From: a virus
Taxonomy: Duplodnaviria; Heunggongvirae; Uroviricota; Caudoviricetes
Length of the DNA: 5,541 nt
IMG/VR virus record: IMGVR_UViG_3300029619_000123
Reading direction: 5' to 3' (one strand)
This document shows positions 1 through 5,294 of the stretch, piece by piece (the first letter of the stretch is position 1; the number at the start of each line of letters is the position of its first letter). Made by a program: the position numbers and the translations under genes. The notes beneath the pieces are model-generated. The model did no database searches. It saw only the letters and a program-made list of their open reading frames with translations, and was not told where the DNA came from.

Positions 1-404
1 AGGTTTAATTCCCGGCGCATAAAGTCCAGCAGAATCACACCAGCCTGCATCTTGTCAGCAGCCTGTCCGGATAATTTTTCCGGTGCGCTGGTTACCATGT
101 CGAAAGTACGGATCACCTTCAGATGGAATGACGGGCTGATCCACATTGCATAGGCATACACCAGTTCTTTGCAGACATACGTCCCCTGGTTATTTCCGCC
201 ACGAATAACGTTAACTGGCTCTATATTGACCGAGTTGCAAATCTGCAACTCGCTTATTAAACGCTCAGTTTGCTCATTGCGGAGCCAGAATGCGGGCTTA
301 TGCTTATCCAGAGAACCAGCAGCCCTGTGCAGATCGTTCAGGCTGTAACGCCCATAAGCATCACGACGAACTTCAATACCATCAATAACCATCAGATTAT
401 TCAT
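1..404 (-). CDS. KilA-N domain protein (putative phage antirepressor/regulator); partial, C-terminus beyond window start
   Basis: Reverse-complement translation from ATG at 404-402 gives MNNLMVIDGIEVRRDAYGRYSLNDLHRAAGSLDKHKPAFWLRNEQTERLISELQ..., open to position 1. SD-like GAGGAGAAACG lies just upstream (rc of 408-418). KilA-N assignment is from memory of the family. Absent from the ORF track because it runs off the window. Confidence 0.75.
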   Translation of the reverse strand, partial: MNNLMVIDGIEVRRDAYGRYSLNDLHRAAGSLDKHKPAFWLRNEQTERLISELQICNSVNIEPVNVIRGGNNQGTYVCKELVYAYAMWISPSFHLKVIRTFDMVTSAPEKLSGQAADKMQAGVILLDFMRRELN

Positions 405-423: not shown

Positions 424-558
424 TCAGGCGGCTGCACCCGCCGCGCTCTGGAATTTGCGCCCCGCCGCGCTTATCAGGCTCTTACCAGCAAACGCCCCTT
501 TGTTGGGGTGTCGCCAGTACGTGTTCACGCTGGGCGGGAAAGGCAGGATCAGCTTCAT
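424..558 (-). pseudogene. RusA-like Holliday-junction resolvase N-terminal remnant (44-aa ORF, truncated relative to ~120-aa family)
   Basis: rc 558->424 translates MKLILPFPPSVNTYWRHPNKGAFAGKSLISAAGRKFQSAAGAAA*. The LPFPPSVNTYWRH stretch resembles the RusA N-terminus (ITLPWPPSNNRYYRH, recalled from memory). ATG overlaps the upstream gene stop as ATGA; SD-like GAGGGG upstream. The stop falls only about 20 nt before the KilA-N start, so the C-terminal two thirds of a RusA are absent. Confidence 0.4.
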
Positions 559-881
559 ACTTTCAGGCCCCTCTCATGTAACCAGTGGGCTGCACGCAGT
601 CTGGCGTTTTCCTCACCGGCAAGCAGTGCGCGGATAATCCCGGCTGCCTCGCTGTCGTCGTCCTTCACTGTGGTATGAAGCGTGATACCCCGGGCCACGC
701 CACGCTTTATCGTGATGACGCCTTTTTTCTCCAGTGCGCGAAGATGCTCCACCGCTGCATTCACCGAACGGTATCCCAGCATGGCTGCCACCTCCTGATT
801 GGTTGGCGGGAAACCACGTTCTTTCTGATAAGAAATCAGCATATCCAGCACCTGCTGCTGGCATTGAGTTAACGTCGTCAT
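555..881 (-). CDS. LexA N-terminal DNA-binding-domain-like protein (108 aa) lacking an S24 peptidase domain
   Basis: From ATG at 881: MTTLTQCQQQVLDMLISYQKERGFPPTNQEVAAMLGYRSVNAAVEHLRALEKKGVITIKRGVARGITL... aligns along its length with the LexA winged-helix domain ([58 protein letters not shown]..., from memory), followed by a ~40-aa tail with no GDSM/KR protease motifs. ATG overlaps the upstream stop as TAATG. The track start at 914 is a GTG; ATG at 881 preferred. Confidence 0.75.
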   Translation of the reverse strand: MTTLTQCQQQVLDMLISYQKERGFPPTNQEVAAMLGYRSVNAAVEHLRALEKKGVITIKRGVARGITLHTTVKDDDSEAAGIIRALLAGEENARLRAAHWLHERGLKV

Positions 882-1369
882 TAAGCCCACACGTAATTCC
901 CTGACAGATACCACTCATCACCCGATACAGCGCGCTTGCTGCTTTTCCGTAAGCCCCGCTCACGGCGCGCCAGAAAATTGTTTCGTTCTGACTGGGAGTG
1001 GCTTTCACGGAATGCCGCCATCCACACGGTTGCAGCACGACGGTATAAGCCCCTGGACTCCAGTTCTTCAGCCTGGCGGGTCAGGCACAAAATTACCCGG
1101 GGATCGTTAGTGCCGACATAGAAATTGCGCACAGGTCTGGTTTCACGAACTGGTTGTGGTTCCGGCTCCTGCGCTCTCTCAGTCAGGCGCGGGAAATGTC
1201 TGCGTGTATTTCCTTCACAACGGTGAGCCACACGCCCACTCTGACGTAACTTGCTTGCTGACTGCAGAACGCGCTGCCGTGAGTAACCTGCAAAAGCATC
1301 TGCAATGTCTCCGGAAGTACACCCCGGATGGGCTTCAATGAATTTCTGAACTTCATTCAAAAGACTCAT
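881..1369 (-). CDS. PerC-family transcriptional regulator-like protein with an N-terminal extension (162 aa)
   Basis: ATG at 1369 with AGGGGG SD about 6 nt upstream. C-terminal half contains AEELESRGLYRRAATVWMAAF, matching the PerC/Pch signature (LE..GLWRRAA..W, from memory). The N-terminal ~60 aa (MSLLNEVQKFIEAHPGCTSGDIADAFAGYSRQRVLQSASKLRQSGRV) looks like a separate small domain. Confidence 0.65.
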   Translation of the reverse strand: MSLLNEVQKFIEAHPGCTSGDIADAFAGYSRQRVLQSASKLRQSGRVAHRCEGNTRRHFPRLTERAQEPEPQPVRETRPVRNFYVGTNDPRVILCLTRQAEELESRGLYRRAATVWMAAFRESHSQSERNNFLARRERGLRKSSKRAVSGDEWYLSGNYVWA

Positions 1370-1371
1370 GA

Positions 1372-2190
1372 TTACCCCCTGAATCCTGCCGGGATCTGGC
1401 TGTAGTCCACGTTGTCGTAACTGGGTTTGAAGTACGGGTCCTCGCGTCTGGCTGCAGATACCGCAGGAACTTCCCAGGATTCTTCGAAATGACGATCCGG
1501 ACCAAAGAACGTGACAGCCTGTTTCACAAATTGTGTGCCGCTGTTACCCATCGCAGATACCCAGCCCGCGTAGCGTTTCACACCTTCCAGCATGGTTTCG
1601 GGTTTTACCCCCTCATTCAAACGGGCTTTCCAGGCTTTGAAGGCTGCAGATTTTGAATTGCCACCAGCACGTTTGGGGTATGCCAGCCATGCCTGCTCAA
1701 ACTCCGGAGAGTATTCCGGTCGGTTTGAACGAACTCGCACAGACTCATCAGCAGATGCACCAACAGCTATTGGTTCATTGACTGGTTCTTTGACTGGTTC
1801 AAAAGAGTGACTGGTTCTGGGTGAATCTCCTGCACCACCCCCTGGTGCAACTCCTGCACTACCTGGTGAATTTGCTGCACCAGATAGTGAATTATTTGCA
1901 CTACCCCCTAGTGAATCTCCTGCACCATCAAGATGAAGGAGATAGATATTACTTGAGTTACCTTTTTCACCTTTCCGGGTGACTTTTTTTACCAGCCCGG
2001 AATCACAAAGGGCCGCAATATGATTCATCACAGAACGTTTGCTAATCTCGCACTGGTCAGCAATATGCTGGTAGCTGGGCCAGCACTCACCCTGATCGCT
2101 GGCATTATCAGCCAGCTTGATCAGAACCAGTTTTCGCAATGGATTACCCACTCGAATTTTCATCGCTTTAACCATCAGCTCCATACTCAT
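1372..2190 (-). CDS. Phage replication initiation protein: N-terminal HTH domain, repetitive linker, DnaT-like C-terminal domain (272 aa)
   Basis: First ATG in frame is at 2190 with strong GGAGGT SD about 6 nt upstream; the track start at 2229 is a TTG. N-terminus MSMELMVKAMKIRVGNPLRKLVLIKLADNASDQGECWPSYQHIADQCEISKRSVMNHIAALCDSGLVKK is HTH-like. C-terminus ...DYSQIPAGFRG resembles the C-terminus of E. coli primosomal protein DnaT (...SQIPPGFRG, from memory). The Gly/Ser/Ala/Pro-rich linker is encoded by the iteron-like repeats. Confidence 0.85.
   Translation of the reverse strand: MSMELMVKAMKIRVGNPLRKLVLIKLADNASDQGECWPSYQHIADQCEISKRSVMNHIAALCDSGLVKKVTRKGEKGNSSNIYLLHLDGAGDSLGGSANNSLSGAANSPGSAGVAPGGGAGDSPRTSHSFEPVKEPVNEPIAVGASADESVRVRSNRPEYSPEFEQAWLAYPKRAGGNSKSAAFKAWKARLNEGVKPETMLEGVKRYAGWVSAMGNSGTQFVKQAVTFFGPDRHFEESWEVPAVSAARREDPYFKPSYDNVDYSQIPAGFRG
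1771..1816. repeat. Short direct repeats GACTGGTTC x3 (plus a partial TGGTTC) adjacent to the iteron block
   Basis: gactggttc at 1780-1788, 1792-1800 and 1808-1816; tggttc at 1771-1776. They encode the EPVKEPVNEP segment of the replication protein. Confidence 0.4.
1821..1927. repeat. Five direct ~17-bp iteron-like repeats (GTGAAT-CTCCTGCACCA family) inside the replication gene; candidate origin of replication
   Basis: Copies at 1821-1837 (gtgaatctcctgcacca), 1846-1862 (gtgcaactcctgcacta), 1866-1882 (gtgaatttgctgcacca), 1887-1903 (gtgaattatttgcacta), 1911-1927 (gtgaatctcctgcacca); first and last are identical. Spacing 20-25 bp, about two helical turns. A moderately AT-rich stretch follows at about 1930-1990. 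Confidence 0.6.
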
Positions 2191-2423
2191 GCTGCACCTC
2201 CGAGATGCTTCATGTTTTTTCCGGAGCAAAAGGCTATAAGCGGCATACTGATGCGGTAATTACGGCCCAGCGGTTCACAAATCACCTTCTGACATTCACG
2301 GTCAACCAGGCTAACACGTAGAACATGCCCTGCAGGCGTGGTGTACCACTGCCCAACTGTAGGAATTGATGTTTTTTTACGCTGAAGCAAACGGCAAATA
2401 TTGAGGATCAACGGATTAAGCAT
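2187..2423 (-). CDS. Hypothetical small protein (78 aa), no family recognised
   Basis: ATG at 2423 with GGAGG SD about 9 nt upstream. Start overlaps the 278-aa ORF stop by 8 nt; its TGA overlaps the replication gene ATG (ATGA). Translation: MLNPLILNICRLLQRKKTSIPTVGQWYTTPAGHVLRVSLVDRECQKVICEPLGRNYRISMPLIAFCSGKNMKHLGGAA. Confidence 0.55.
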   Translation of the reverse strand: MLNPLILNICRLLQRKKTSIPTVGQWYTTPAGHVLRVSLVDRECQKVICEPLGRNYRISMPLIAFCSGKNMKHLGGAA

Positions 2424-3252
2424 GACGATGCCCTCCGCTGATATTCAGGAGACGGTGAATATGAAAATTAGCCTTATCCGCCAGACGAATACGTTCAGCC
2501 TGCAAGTTAAGAAGGGTTTCTACCAAAACCTGATGCGCCTGCGGATCCGAAAGAGTTACCTTGCGCAGAGCACGTAGTGCAGTTGTTACATAACTGAGTT
2601 TATGTAAGTCTTCATCATTCAGACGAGTGAGGGCTGGGACAGTAGCCATGATGGCAGCCTCCGATAACAGTGAATTACCTTCACCACCGGAAACGCCAAT
2701 TTCGCTGGTGGTGAACTGAACGGGGTTGGCGTAACCGGCGTTATCGGAAACCGGCGCACCTTTCGGTGCCCCCGTCCAGCCCACCATAATTTGGGTGTGC
2801 ACAGACACAGACGATAAAAAAGACGCTGGCGCGTCATATATCGCCGATAACATTTCCAGGACGCCAATCCCGTCACCCGCTTTATAAGGTGCCTGAACAG
2901 TGTAACGTCCCGGAATGGCAGAATCAATGTGCTGGTGGTCCTTCACACTCAACAAAATCACGCCTGAATTTCCACAAAGGACTAAAGCACTCATGCGGGT
3001 AGTCTTTGCGAAGATAGATAACGCGCTGTGTTTCTGGTTCCCAACGAATAACATGGACATAAAGCCCTCTTCCGTCACGAAACCAGCGGTTAAGTTCCCG
3101 CACAACTCGCCCCCCACAGTCAGGTAAAGTTCTCTGTGGTTACTTACAGCCAGGTGATTTGGTAATCTGCATTCATGCCGTAACAACAGGTGTTCAGCGA
3201 CACTGACCACCAGCTGTTGCGACAAACGGTTATTTGCCGTTAAACTGTTCAT
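2416..3252 (-). CDS. Hypothetical protein (278 aa), no family recognised; accessory gene in early operon
   Basis: Longest ORF in the region, same strand as neighbours. ATG at 3252 overlaps the upstream gene stop (ATGA); GGAG SD about 10 nt upstream. No Walker A, HNH, DPPY or other motif I can recognise by eye. Confidence 0.7.
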   Translation of the reverse strand: MNSLTANNRLSQQLVVSVAEHLLLRHECRLPNHLAVSNHRELYLTVGGELCGNLTAGFVTEEGFMSMLFVGNQKHSALSIFAKTTRMSALVLCGNSGVILLSVKDHQHIDSAIPGRYTVQAPYKAGDGIGVLEMLSAIYDAPASFLSSVSVHTQIMVGWTGAPKGAPVSDNAGYANPVQFTTSEIGVSGGEGNSLLSEAAIMATVPALTRLNDEDLHKLSYVTTALRALRKVTLSDPQAHQVLVETLLNLQAERIRLADKANFHIHRLLNISGGHRHA

Positions 3253-4134: not shown

Positions 4135-4809
4135 ATGAAAACAATCCATGACATCCGGCGGTCTAACGCCAGAAAACTGAGAGATGGTGTTGGCGGAAAT
4201 TCATCCTTTGCCACCATGATTGATCGCGAGCCAACCCAAACCAGCAGGTTTATGGGGGATGGCGCTACTAAAAATATCGGTGACAGCATGGCACGGCACA
4301 TCGAAAAATGTTTCGACCTGCCTGTCGGATGGCTTGATCAAGAACACCAGACAACGAACATCACAAAAAAACCTGATGTTTCAATCACTAACAAACAAAT
4401 AACGTTAGTCCCTGTCATATCATGGGTACAGGCCGGAGCATGGAAAGAAGTTGGCTATTCTGAGGTTGATTTGAGCACAGCAGAAACGTATCCCTGCCCT
4501 GTACCCTGTGGCGAAATGACTTATATCTTGCGGGTGATTGGTGATTCAATGATTGATGAGTACCGCCCTGGAGACATGATTTTTGTTGATCCCGAAGTCC
4601 CTGCCTGCCACGGTGACGACGTTATTGCATTGATGCACGATACAGGCGAAACCACCTTCAAGCGATTGATAGAAGATGGAACACAGCGTTATCTCAAAGC
4701 ATTAAACCCAAACTGGCCTGAGCCTTACATTAAGATTAACGGTAATTGCTCTATAATTGGTACAGTGATTTTCTCGGGAAAACCAAGAAGATACACAATA
4801 AAGGCCTAA
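4135..4809 (+). CDS. CI-like prophage repressor with C-terminal LexA/S24 peptidase autocleavage domain (224 aa)
   Basis: S24 hallmarks all present: Ala-Gly cleavage site (VQAGAW), catalytic Ser motif (VIGDSMID), catalytic Lys (TTFKRL). N-terminal region ends with a ...LPVGWLD segment typical of repressor DNA-binding domains. Divergent from cro-like gene. Confidence 0.9.
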   Translation: MKTIHDIRRSNARKLRDGVGGNSSFATMIDREPTQTSRFMGDGATKNIGDSMARHIEKCFDLPVGWLDQEHQTTNITKKPDVSITNKQITLVPVISWVQAGAWKEVGYSEVDLSTAETYPCPVPCGEMTYILRVIGDSMIDEYRPGDMIFVDPEVPACHGDDVIALMHDTGETTFKRLIEDGTQRYLKALNPNWPEPYIKINGNCSIIGTVIFSGKPRRYTIKA

Positions 4810-4821
4810 TCAATATTTATG

Positions 4822-4846
4822 AACCTGCTTCGGCAGGTTTTTTTAT
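4822..4846 (+). terminator. Rho-independent terminator downstream of the repressor gene
   Basis: AACCTGC-TTCG-GCAGGTT perfect 7-bp stem with TTCG tetraloop, followed by TTTTTTT, starting 13 bp after the cI stop codon. Confidence 0.8.
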
Positions 4847-4848
4847 AC

Positions 4849-4876
4849 TTGACAATGTACCTATGAGATACATAAT
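4849..4876 (+). promoter_or_regulatory. Candidate PL-like sigma70 promoter with operator half-site in the spacer
   Basis: -35 TTGACA at 4849-4854, 16-bp spacer, -10 CATAAT at 4871-4876. The spacer contains TGTACCT (4856-4862), the same heptamer found twice in the cro/cI intergenic region (4051-4057, 4102-4108). Confidence 0.5.
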
Positions 4877-5294
4877 GTATCCAAAAGAAACATGAGGCAG
4901 GCAAGATTCAAACAAAATTTGGTTGTAACACGGCGTATGGCACATGCGTCGTTAGCGGTCTGGGGACGTTAAAGGGGACAATCCACTCCTTGCTAGGGCA
5001 AACAAACCAGGTAGCCGGAATGTGCAAGTCAATGATGATGCTGATAAGACGCCTAACCAGCGTGGCGATCCGGTTTGACGCCTGGGAAGAGACCAGGGTG
5101 CAACGATGAGGGCATTTATGGAGCCGCGACAAAGTGTGGTGCCGTAACTGGCTAAGTGCTCTCAGCGTTGTGGTCATCCGCGAAATGGCGCGGCGGTAAG
5201 TATGGCTGGGTTACTCTTTCCCCGTTGAGGACACCGGATTGTCAGGTTGACCATACGCCTGAGTGACAACCCCACCACAACAGCCACTGCTTTG

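Follow-up and report, generated by a model that had tools for sequence, protein, structure and literature searches.

The replication origins of phages lambda and P22 lie inside their initiator genes (gene O and gene 18, respectively), between the parts coding for an N-terminal DNA-binding domain and a C-terminal recruiting domain. Both hold four to five iterons, each about 18 bp long and dyad-symmetric, spaced by 20-24 bp; these may stand in any reading frame (the four of lambda occupy three). The iterons are type-specific, and right behind the last of them the two phages share an A-rich element, ACACAAAAGACAnTATnACAAAAGA; the C-terminal domains are interchangeable. In lambda, it is at the A-rich element that the O-some unwinds the DNA. 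The lambda mechanism is summarised elsewhere (PMC7466680, PMC8022706), and an in-gene iteron origin was inferred by analogy for phage L (PMC8022706), as is routine practice in the field. Here, we describe a 5,541-nucleotide stretch of a Caudoviricetes genome (IMG/VR record IMGVR_UViG_3300029619_000123; hereafter the window), in which the gene for a 272-residue replication initiator (rep) carries five iterons and, beside them, a short element that is conserved throughout its family. Based on the comparison of homologues, we consider it likely that positions 1767-1927, in the linker-coding middle of rep, form the core of a prophage replication origin. An earlier note on this DNA had proposed such a lambda-like origin within the gene, and the proposal is supported by family-wide repeat arrays, mixed reading frames, co-variation of the repeats with the N-terminal domain, variation in copy number and a disordered linker.

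Iterons in the linker-coding stretch of rep

The earlier note had listed five repeats of about 17 bp at 1821-1927, two of them identical. A repeat search as well as Tandem Repeats Finder (TRF) recovered this family with the same coordinates and counts, with start-to-start spacings of 24, 21, 21 and 24 bp. The consensus GTGAATCTCCTGCAC spans 15-17 bp and reads (A/G)GTGCA-N5-T(T/G)CAC(C/T) in gene sense; the symmetry common to all five units, GTG(C/A)A-N5-T(G/T)CAC, lies inside the open reading frame (ORF) at 1372-2190. Units 1821-1837 and 1911-1927 are identical 17-mers, and unit 1845-1859 (GTGCAACTCCTGCAC) forms a 5-N5-5 palindrome without mismatch, GTGCA-N5-TGCAC. With up to three mismatches allowed, GTGAATCTCCTGCAC matched the window seven times against 0.15 matches expected, a number reached in none of 200 dinucleotide shuffles. 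Four of the seven matches fall inside the array, the fifth unit of which (1887) has four mismatches. Folding of the array as single-stranded DNA also exceeded that of shuffled sequences (z -2.6 to -2.8), which reflects the dyads only. Neither the repeat search nor TRF found a second repeat array elsewhere in the window.

The three matches outside the array, with three mismatches each, are located at 1204-1218 (+), 2670-2684 (+) and 24-38 (-), in a PerC-like gene, an Ash gene and the gene at the left end, respectively. Two of the three keep the ends GTG.A...T.CAC. These sites could be chance matches or auxiliary initiator sites.

The array encodes linker residues ~89-124, and the encoded peptide is itself repetitive (GAGDSLG GSANNSLS GAANSPGS AGVAPGG GAGDSPR). 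Because all spacings in the window are multiples of three, the window alone does not decide between a DNA and a peptide feature. We therefore turned to relatives, which were collected in two sets. For the first, viral contigs were scanned with the sequence adjoining the repeats, which gave 123 loci by the pattern of the conserved element described below; for the second, 185,579 species genomes were scanned with two peptide patterns taken from the N-terminal domain only, which gave 254 relatives, of which 80 were examined (from Pseudomonas, Enterobacter, Aeromonas, Shewanella, Marinomonas, Xenorhabdus, Cardiobacteriaceae and other hosts). All 123 loci of the first set share an ORF composed of the conserved N-terminal domain, phage-specific repeats, the element and then unrelated C-terminal domains, and all 80 relatives selected by the N-terminal domain carry a repeat array at the same place. 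Conservation at the DNA level, on which the earlier note had made its proposal depend, is thus found across genera, at a spacing of 21-24 bp.

Among 142 distinct arrays with one to eight repeats, spacings of 21 bp (169 cases), 22 bp (66), 23 bp (68) and 24 bp (166) were observed. Nearly half of these arrays (68 of 142) hold spacings not divisible by three, and the repeat is then read in different frames within one gene; in one relative, the same DNA repeat yields GAAYSP, VVQEIHQ and GAAAAL. The geometry within the unit is fixed at 15 bp between the dyad ends, changes in length being restricted to a G-run in the spacer, and in the last iteron third codon positions are more conserved (0.84) than first and second positions (0.70 and 0.69). 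Because one repeat gives unrelated peptides in different frames, the repeats are constrained as DNA and not as peptide. Judged from these sequences, the iterons are a DNA feature with the properties of protein-binding sites about two helical turns apart. Their number varies even among nearly identical genes, as the earlier note had suggested should be looked at: in E. coli, proteins that share 86% identity or more with the query have lengths of 242, 250, 272, 286, 294 and 302 residues, corresponding to 1, 2, 5, 7, 8 and 9 repeats, and phage cdtI has 8.

The product of rep matches Pfam HTH_36 (PF13730) at residues 17-67 with 43.5 bits (cut-off 25) and PHROG 270, "replication initiation protein", at 1.3e-88. 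It has more than 5,500 homologous proteins, and PF13730 was present in all 120 homologues among the matches listed. AlphaFold2 predicts a single winged helix for the N-terminal domain (predicted local distance difference test, pLDDT, 70-92), with helices at 3-11, 17-29, 40-47 and 51-64 and strands at 67-73 and 79-85; in this model, 51-64 would be the recognition helix and 67-85 the beta-hairpin wing. Foldseek matched this domain to generic winged-helix proteins, including the N-terminal domain of DnaD (2v79), all at E>0.02, and a Pfam DnaD_N match (8.2e-5) stayed below its cut-off. Residues 91-157, the span of the iteron and element peptide, are disordered in the model (pLDDT about 30) between the winged-helix domain and a helical C-terminal domain, in agreement with the view that the repeats encode an interdomain linker. 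The C-terminal domain belongs to one of at least 16 interchangeable or unrelated types that clustering distinguishes in the family, and presumably recruits host replication proteins; PHROG families matching residues 147-249 are named "DnaD-like helicase loader" and "primosomal protein". Its description as DnaT-like could not be confirmed: the term is only a label in some GenBank records, and no similarity to DnaT was found in Pfam, NCBIfam, a PDB sequence search (one spurious low-complexity match) or a fold search. At the modest AlphaFold2 confidence for this domain, a distant relationship to the DnaT fold may exist.

Residues 1-48 of the initiator are nearly invariant family-wide, and residues ~49-88, which comprise the predicted recognition helix and wing, are variable. 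The iterons fall into at least eight types, for example GGTGCAGGAGATTCACC, GGGGCAGGAGCTGCCCC, AGTGAAAATTTTGCACT, GGTGACACAGAGTCACC, CCTGTAGGCCCAGAAAGCAC and CTATGCCGCCAAAAAGCATAG. Iteron sequence correlates with residues ~49-88 (Mantel rho 0.56, p=0.001) more than with the C-terminal domain (0.17). When the same variable N-terminal region is joined to unrelated C-terminal domains, the iterons differ at 0.36 of 17 positions; when the same C-terminal domain is joined to different variable regions, they differ at 10.5 of 17. These distance-based tests were used in place of hard clustering of iteron, N-domain and C-domain types (adjusted Rand index 0.39 and 0.15), which was too coarse owing to single-linkage chaining. 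The N-terminal domain and the iterons are inherited as one unit, as expected of a specificity pair.

A conserved element beside the last iteron

Next to the array, TGACTGGTTC occurs three times without mismatch, at 1779, 1791 and 1808 (1779-1817), against 0.42 copies expected at up to one mismatch and with such a count in 1 of 200 shuffles; a degenerate fourth unit of this type is found at 1767-1776. The earlier note had described the three copies as a second short family of repeats (GACTGGTTC). The copies are indeed present, are not phage-specific and turn out to be part of an element common to the whole family. In gene sense, the element begins one base after the last iteron and reads AGAACCAGTCACTCTTTTGAACCAGTC, then A-n-n-GAACC. 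It is 27-50 bp long and contains two to four units, spaced by 17, 15 or 12 bp with variable spacer sequence; the number of extension units varies among close relatives, being one higher or one lower in five variants.

Related phages of many bacterial genera share the element almost unchanged. A blastn comparison matched 1775-1824 at 90-97% identity to the rep genes of Vibrio phages and Stenotrophomonas phages, the flanks being below 70% identity or unalignable. Within the 80 loci selected by the N-terminal domain alone, 70 have the element without indels and with 0-6 (mostly 0-3) mismatches; it contains small indels in eight of the remaining ten, is degenerate in one and reduced to a truncated fragment in one. 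It is kept in hosts of about 40 to 65% G+C, and conservation decays beyond about +39 nt. Across 51 non-redundant genes, the top-base frequency at codon positions 1, 2 and 3 is 0.924, 0.924 and 0.965 in the element, compared with 0.886, 0.922 and 0.551 in the N-terminal domain (0.539 at the third position of columns with an invariant amino acid). Substitutions in the element change the encoded amino acid (ACC to ATC, CAC to AAC, TTT to CTT, TCT or CCT). Moreover, in Shewanella and Parashewanella the spacer is 2 nt shorter, which places the first unit in another frame, so that HPEPVTLEPV is encoded there and RTSHSFEPV elsewhere. Since third positions are fixed, substitutions are non-synonymous and two reading frames are used, the constraint acts on the nucleotides: across Gammaproteobacterial phages, selection on the element operates at the nucleotide level, mainly at the repeated GAACC(AGTC) units.

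Two other explanations for the element were discarded. A frameshift or truncation signal at TCTTTTGA is ruled out by the members with the shorter spacer, which retain the DNA units in another frame, and a protein docking motif RTSHSFEPV by the substitutions at codon positions 1 and 2 beside fixed third positions. In a plasmid collection, the element was found only in phage-like records of 33-53 kb and in chromosomes filed as plasmids, always in helix-turn-helix genes or unannotated stretches.

Averaged over 46 non-redundant genes of the family, duplex stability within rep is lowest in the element (z +1.2 to +1.5), and no hairpin potential of single-stranded DNA was detected in it (z +1.2 and +0.1). 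A second zone of low stability, less pronounced, borders the array on its other side, and in this phage it is the more A+T-rich of the two.

In three Shewanella prophages, both GAACCAGTC units are shifted towards GAATCTATC or GAACCTATC; in Phi24B, the first unit alone is changed (ACCTATCAC). The paired shift may mean that a repeated recognition site has changed in concert; the statistics behind it are weak and do not account for phylogeny.

Origin function and alternative explanations

From the properties of the array we infer that the initiator binds the iterons and that these have origin activity. In the mechanism that we propose, dimers of the N-terminal winged-helix domain would bind the five dyad-symmetric iterons; since successive iterons lie roughly two helical turns from each other, these dimers would line up along the same face of the double helix and deform it. 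This deformation would destabilise the adjoining segment, most likely the conserved element with its two to four direct GAACCAGTC units, and the C-terminal domain of the initiator would then recruit the replicative helicase. The helicase must be the host's in this phage, because no helicase or helicase-loader gene adjoins rep (none at 424-1369 of the window and none in the record of phage 2H10, which carries almost the same gene). In relatives with the same N-terminal domain and element, rep is followed by a gene for a DnaB-type helicase in Stenotrophomonas phage BUCT709 and by one for a large primase-helicase in Phi24B.

We propose the conserved element as the unwinding or helicase-loading site because it takes the position of the AT-rich unwinding element of lambda; its recognition could fall to the invariant part of the initiator or to a conserved factor of the host. 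We put forward more tentatively, as an idea that may well turn out wrong, that the element is an undescribed, sequence-specific origin component common to temperate-phage initiator genes across Gammaproteobacteria. Its partner, in contact with either the duplex or a single melted strand, would be the nearly invariant residues 1-48 of the initiator or else a conserved replication protein of the host, and the element would set where the helicase is loaded, whichever helicase the C-terminal domain recruits (host DnaB, phage DnaB or phage primase-helicase). A host factor cannot be named, because neither DnaA boxes (TTWTNCACA with up to one mismatch; 11 against 10.96 expected, none in the element) nor sites of the IHF consensus (one, distant from the element) are enriched.

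The A+T-rich flank on the other side of the array, which the earlier note had also pointed out, is a second candidate for unwinding. It does contain the least stable 30-mer stretch of rep, at 1927-1970 (free energy -33.3 kcal/mol; window mean -41.1, standard deviation 3.3). However, 1927-1990 encodes the conserved wing with an ordinary coding pattern (third-position conservation 0.46), and the flank is therefore the weaker of the two candidates. Low-stability zones border the array on both sides, neither of them near the A+T content of lambda, and the most A+T-rich segments of the window lie outside rep. A scan of 1300-2500 found no sigma-70 promoter and a single terminator-like hairpin, at 1967-1982 (+), which is at chance level; rep has no Rfam match.

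Several observations speak against an origin at this place. The searched literature holds no binding, unwinding or autonomous-replication experiment on any family member, and the records of 2H10, cdtI, SfV, ST64B and mEp460 have no origin annotated here, unlike those of lambda and P22. The A+T content of the element is just 56-63%, far below that of the lambda unwinding tract, the least stable segment in this phage is on the opposite side of the array, and the signals for host factors are at background. Furthermore, the iterons adjoin the coding region of the N-terminal domain, so that linkage alone could produce their association with it, and linkage does contribute. Finally, there are natural E. 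coli deletion variants with just one (P0042, 242 residues) or two iterons (P0030, 250 residues), and one (P0037, 247 residues) in which the last iteron and the whole conserved element are deleted; these may be defective cryptic prophages, or fewer sites may suffice.

An alternative role for the element would be that of a module junction, its identity being kept for homologous recombination that swaps the N-terminal domain plus iterons between C-terminal modules. The element sits exactly where family-wide similarity ends, the at least 16 unrelated C-terminal clusters are joined to the same N-domain and iteron types and vice versa, and identity over 27 nt comes near the length required for efficient homologous exchange. 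Yet conservation is concentrated in the GAACC(AGTC) units around a spacer of variable length, which fits recognition of a repeated site better than one identity tract; the element also persists over the whole range of host G+C with third positions 96% conserved, and it combines the lowest stability within the gene with a lack of structure. We regard a junction as an unlikely explanation for the conservation, and note that it is compatible with a role in unwinding or loading.

It is also conceivable that the five repeats are control sites, serving autoregulation, a transcriptional roadblock in the early-right operon or copy-number "handcuffing", and that the true origin is elsewhere in the phage genome. 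Plasmid iterons have control functions as well, and both the weak iteron-like sites outside the array and the location of the best A+T-rich segments outside rep would fit. We nevertheless hold this to be improbable: the order of N-terminal domain, iterons, element and C-terminal domain copies that of lambda and P22, where the annotated origins fall inside O and gene 18, respectively, arrays with two-turn spacing stand beside a low-stability element in every homologue, and the window has no other array. A low-complexity G/S/A/P linker expanded by slippage, devoid of DNA function, would explain the in-frame spacings of the window and its repetitive, predicted disordered peptide, and is very hard to reconcile with mixed frames in 68 of 142 arrays, a spacing of 21-24 bp whatever the frame, dyad-symmetric units of fixed geometry and the third-position conservation of the last iteron.

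Genomic setting and comparison with described systems

The window is the immunity and early-right region of a lambdoid prophage of the 2H10/SfV/cdtI/"Eru6" type. Its minus strand encodes, in this order, a Cro/YdaS-like protein, CII (CP76), an Ash-family protein, a 78-residue ORF, the 272-residue initiator, a PerC/ANR-like protein, a protein with a LexA DNA-binding domain and the start of rusA (Table 1). In phage 2H10, the counterpart of rep, annotated as "replication protein", is 99.9% identical; identity is 98-99% in cdtI, mEp460, several Stx2 phages and PhiR phages, 98.7% in Stx2a_WGPS2, the Eru6 reference phage, and 89% in Salmonella ST64B. SfV shares both the conserved element and the order of genes. 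The repeat segment is present in 925 of 5,426 complete E. coli genomes (17%).

Table 1. Positions of the origin candidate, the parts of the initiator gene and neighbouring genes in the window.
Feature	Position	Strand	Basis or remark
Replication initiator (rep) gene, 272 residues	1372..2190	-	Pfam HTH_36, PHROG 270, match to 2H10
Region coding for N-terminal winged-helix domain, residues 1-88	1927..2190	-	AlphaFold2, Foldseek, family alignment
A+T-rich flank, second candidate unwinding zone	1927..1970	.	70% A+T; encodes wing KGNSSNIYLLHLD
Iteron array, five dyad-symmetric units	1821..1927	.	cores 1821-1835, 1845-1859, 1866-1880, 1887-1901, 1911-1925 (+ strand)
Conserved element, core; AGAACCAGTCACTCTTTTGAACCAGTC in gene sense	1792..1818	-	two direct GAACCAGTC units 17 bp apart
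Conserved element, extension	1767..1791	-	units GAACCAGTCAAT, then degenerate GAACCAATAG (gene sense)
Region coding for C-terminal helical domain, residues ~158-272	1372..1719	-	AlphaFold2 helices 162-225, pLDDT 56-74
PerC/ANR-like gene	881-1369	-	downstream of rep
LexA-DNA-binding-domain gene	555-914	-	downstream of rep
rusA, start only in window	starts 558	-	
cI-like S24 repressor gene	4135-4809	+	

Upstream of rep, the ATG start codon overlaps the stop codon of the 78-residue ORF as ATGA (2187-2190), and this overlap suggests translational coupling of the two genes. The ORF belongs to PHROG 1153 (function unknown) and is conserved 5' of rep in SfV, mEp460 and cdtI. Rfam matches to C4 antisense RNA (RF01695, 82.8 bits; 2704-2791, -) and isrK RNA (RF01394, 55.4 bits; 2816-2892, -) are located inside a long ORF at 2416-3252, for which the 2H10 record gives only a shorter Ash-family coding sequence, downstream of the two RNA matches. 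This region, just upstream of rep, looks like a small-RNA-controlled antirepressor module of the P1 immI or Gifsy isrK type. Past the cI-like gene and a terminator-like hairpin, about 400 nt (4810-5210) are free of annotated genes in 2H10; they have no Rfam match, and their RNA folding is not better than that of shuffled sequences (z -1.0 and -1.25).

An origin inside the initiator gene is in itself unsurprising, because this is the textbook lambda arrangement; the least expected part is an element that is conserved family-wide at the nucleotide level. Neither the sequence of the element nor iterons for this family are described in the literature that we searched, which covers few subscription journals, and the element is apparently undescribed before. 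The analysis assigns a concrete, testable origin to a module found in roughly one complete E. coli genome out of six, as well as in SfV, ST64B, cdtI and a number of Stx-converting phages ("Eru6" and "Eru5"). At least eight iteron types, each paired with variants of the recognition helix and wing, provide a resource for winged-helix specificity, and a table of these types may predict replication incompatibility or cross-activation of co-resident prophages. If the element is an unwinding or loading site, such sites can be sequence-specific rather than simply A+T-rich, and a single DNA probe would detect this whole class of phage origins. The element would then represent a "universal" unwinding or loading signal in coding DNA that is read in more than one frame.

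Compared with lambda and P22, the conserved element of the window occupies the same position, directly after type-specific iterons. The sequences themselves differ: the element consists of direct GAACCAGTC repeats, whereas that of lambda is a purine-rich tract of ~80% A+T. The initiators also belong to different families, with an N-terminal domain of the HTH_36 type here and Phage_rep_O in lambda O. No match to PF04492 was obtained at E<=0.01, and an hhalign comparison of the N-domain profile with lambda O gave a probability of 4%, which leaves homology to lambda O or P22 gp18 without support in these searches. Unlike lambda, the phage has no P-like loader or helicase gene after the initiator. 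Closer relatives are the "O" genes of the Phi24B/F403 type (Eru5), which are members of the same family and carry three iterons (GGTGGGGCAGGAGCTGCCC) and a variant of the element. The Eru types were defined by gene content, and the HTH_36 motif was noted (Fagerlund et al. 2022, PMC8951638; Llarena et al. 2021, PMC8044961); neither paper mentions iterons, repeats or an origin for Eru5 and Eru6.

Theta plasmids (RK2 oriV with TrfA, F with RepE, pPS10 with RepA) resemble the window in that initiator-specific iterons stand beside a DNA unwinding element (DUE) of short direct repeats. The plasmid DUE consists of repeated 13-mers and is bound as single-stranded DNA by Rep; in the "loop-back" idea, the initiator reportedly also contacts one DUE strand, which by analogy would be a possible model for the GAACCAGTC units. 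In contrast to the window, with its intragenic iterons, single predicted winged helix and DnaA-box-like sites at chance frequency, these plasmids have intergenic iterons, Rep proteins with tandem WH1-WH2 domains and DnaA boxes. Repeats inside a gene that are bound by its own product are also found in Gram-positive systems, namely SPP1 G38P with oriL and the rep genes of the lactococcal phages TP901-1 and Tuc2009. These replisome organisers resemble the initiator described here in the fold of the N-terminal domain, via the N-terminal winged helix of DnaD, and belong to other hosts and other sequence families.

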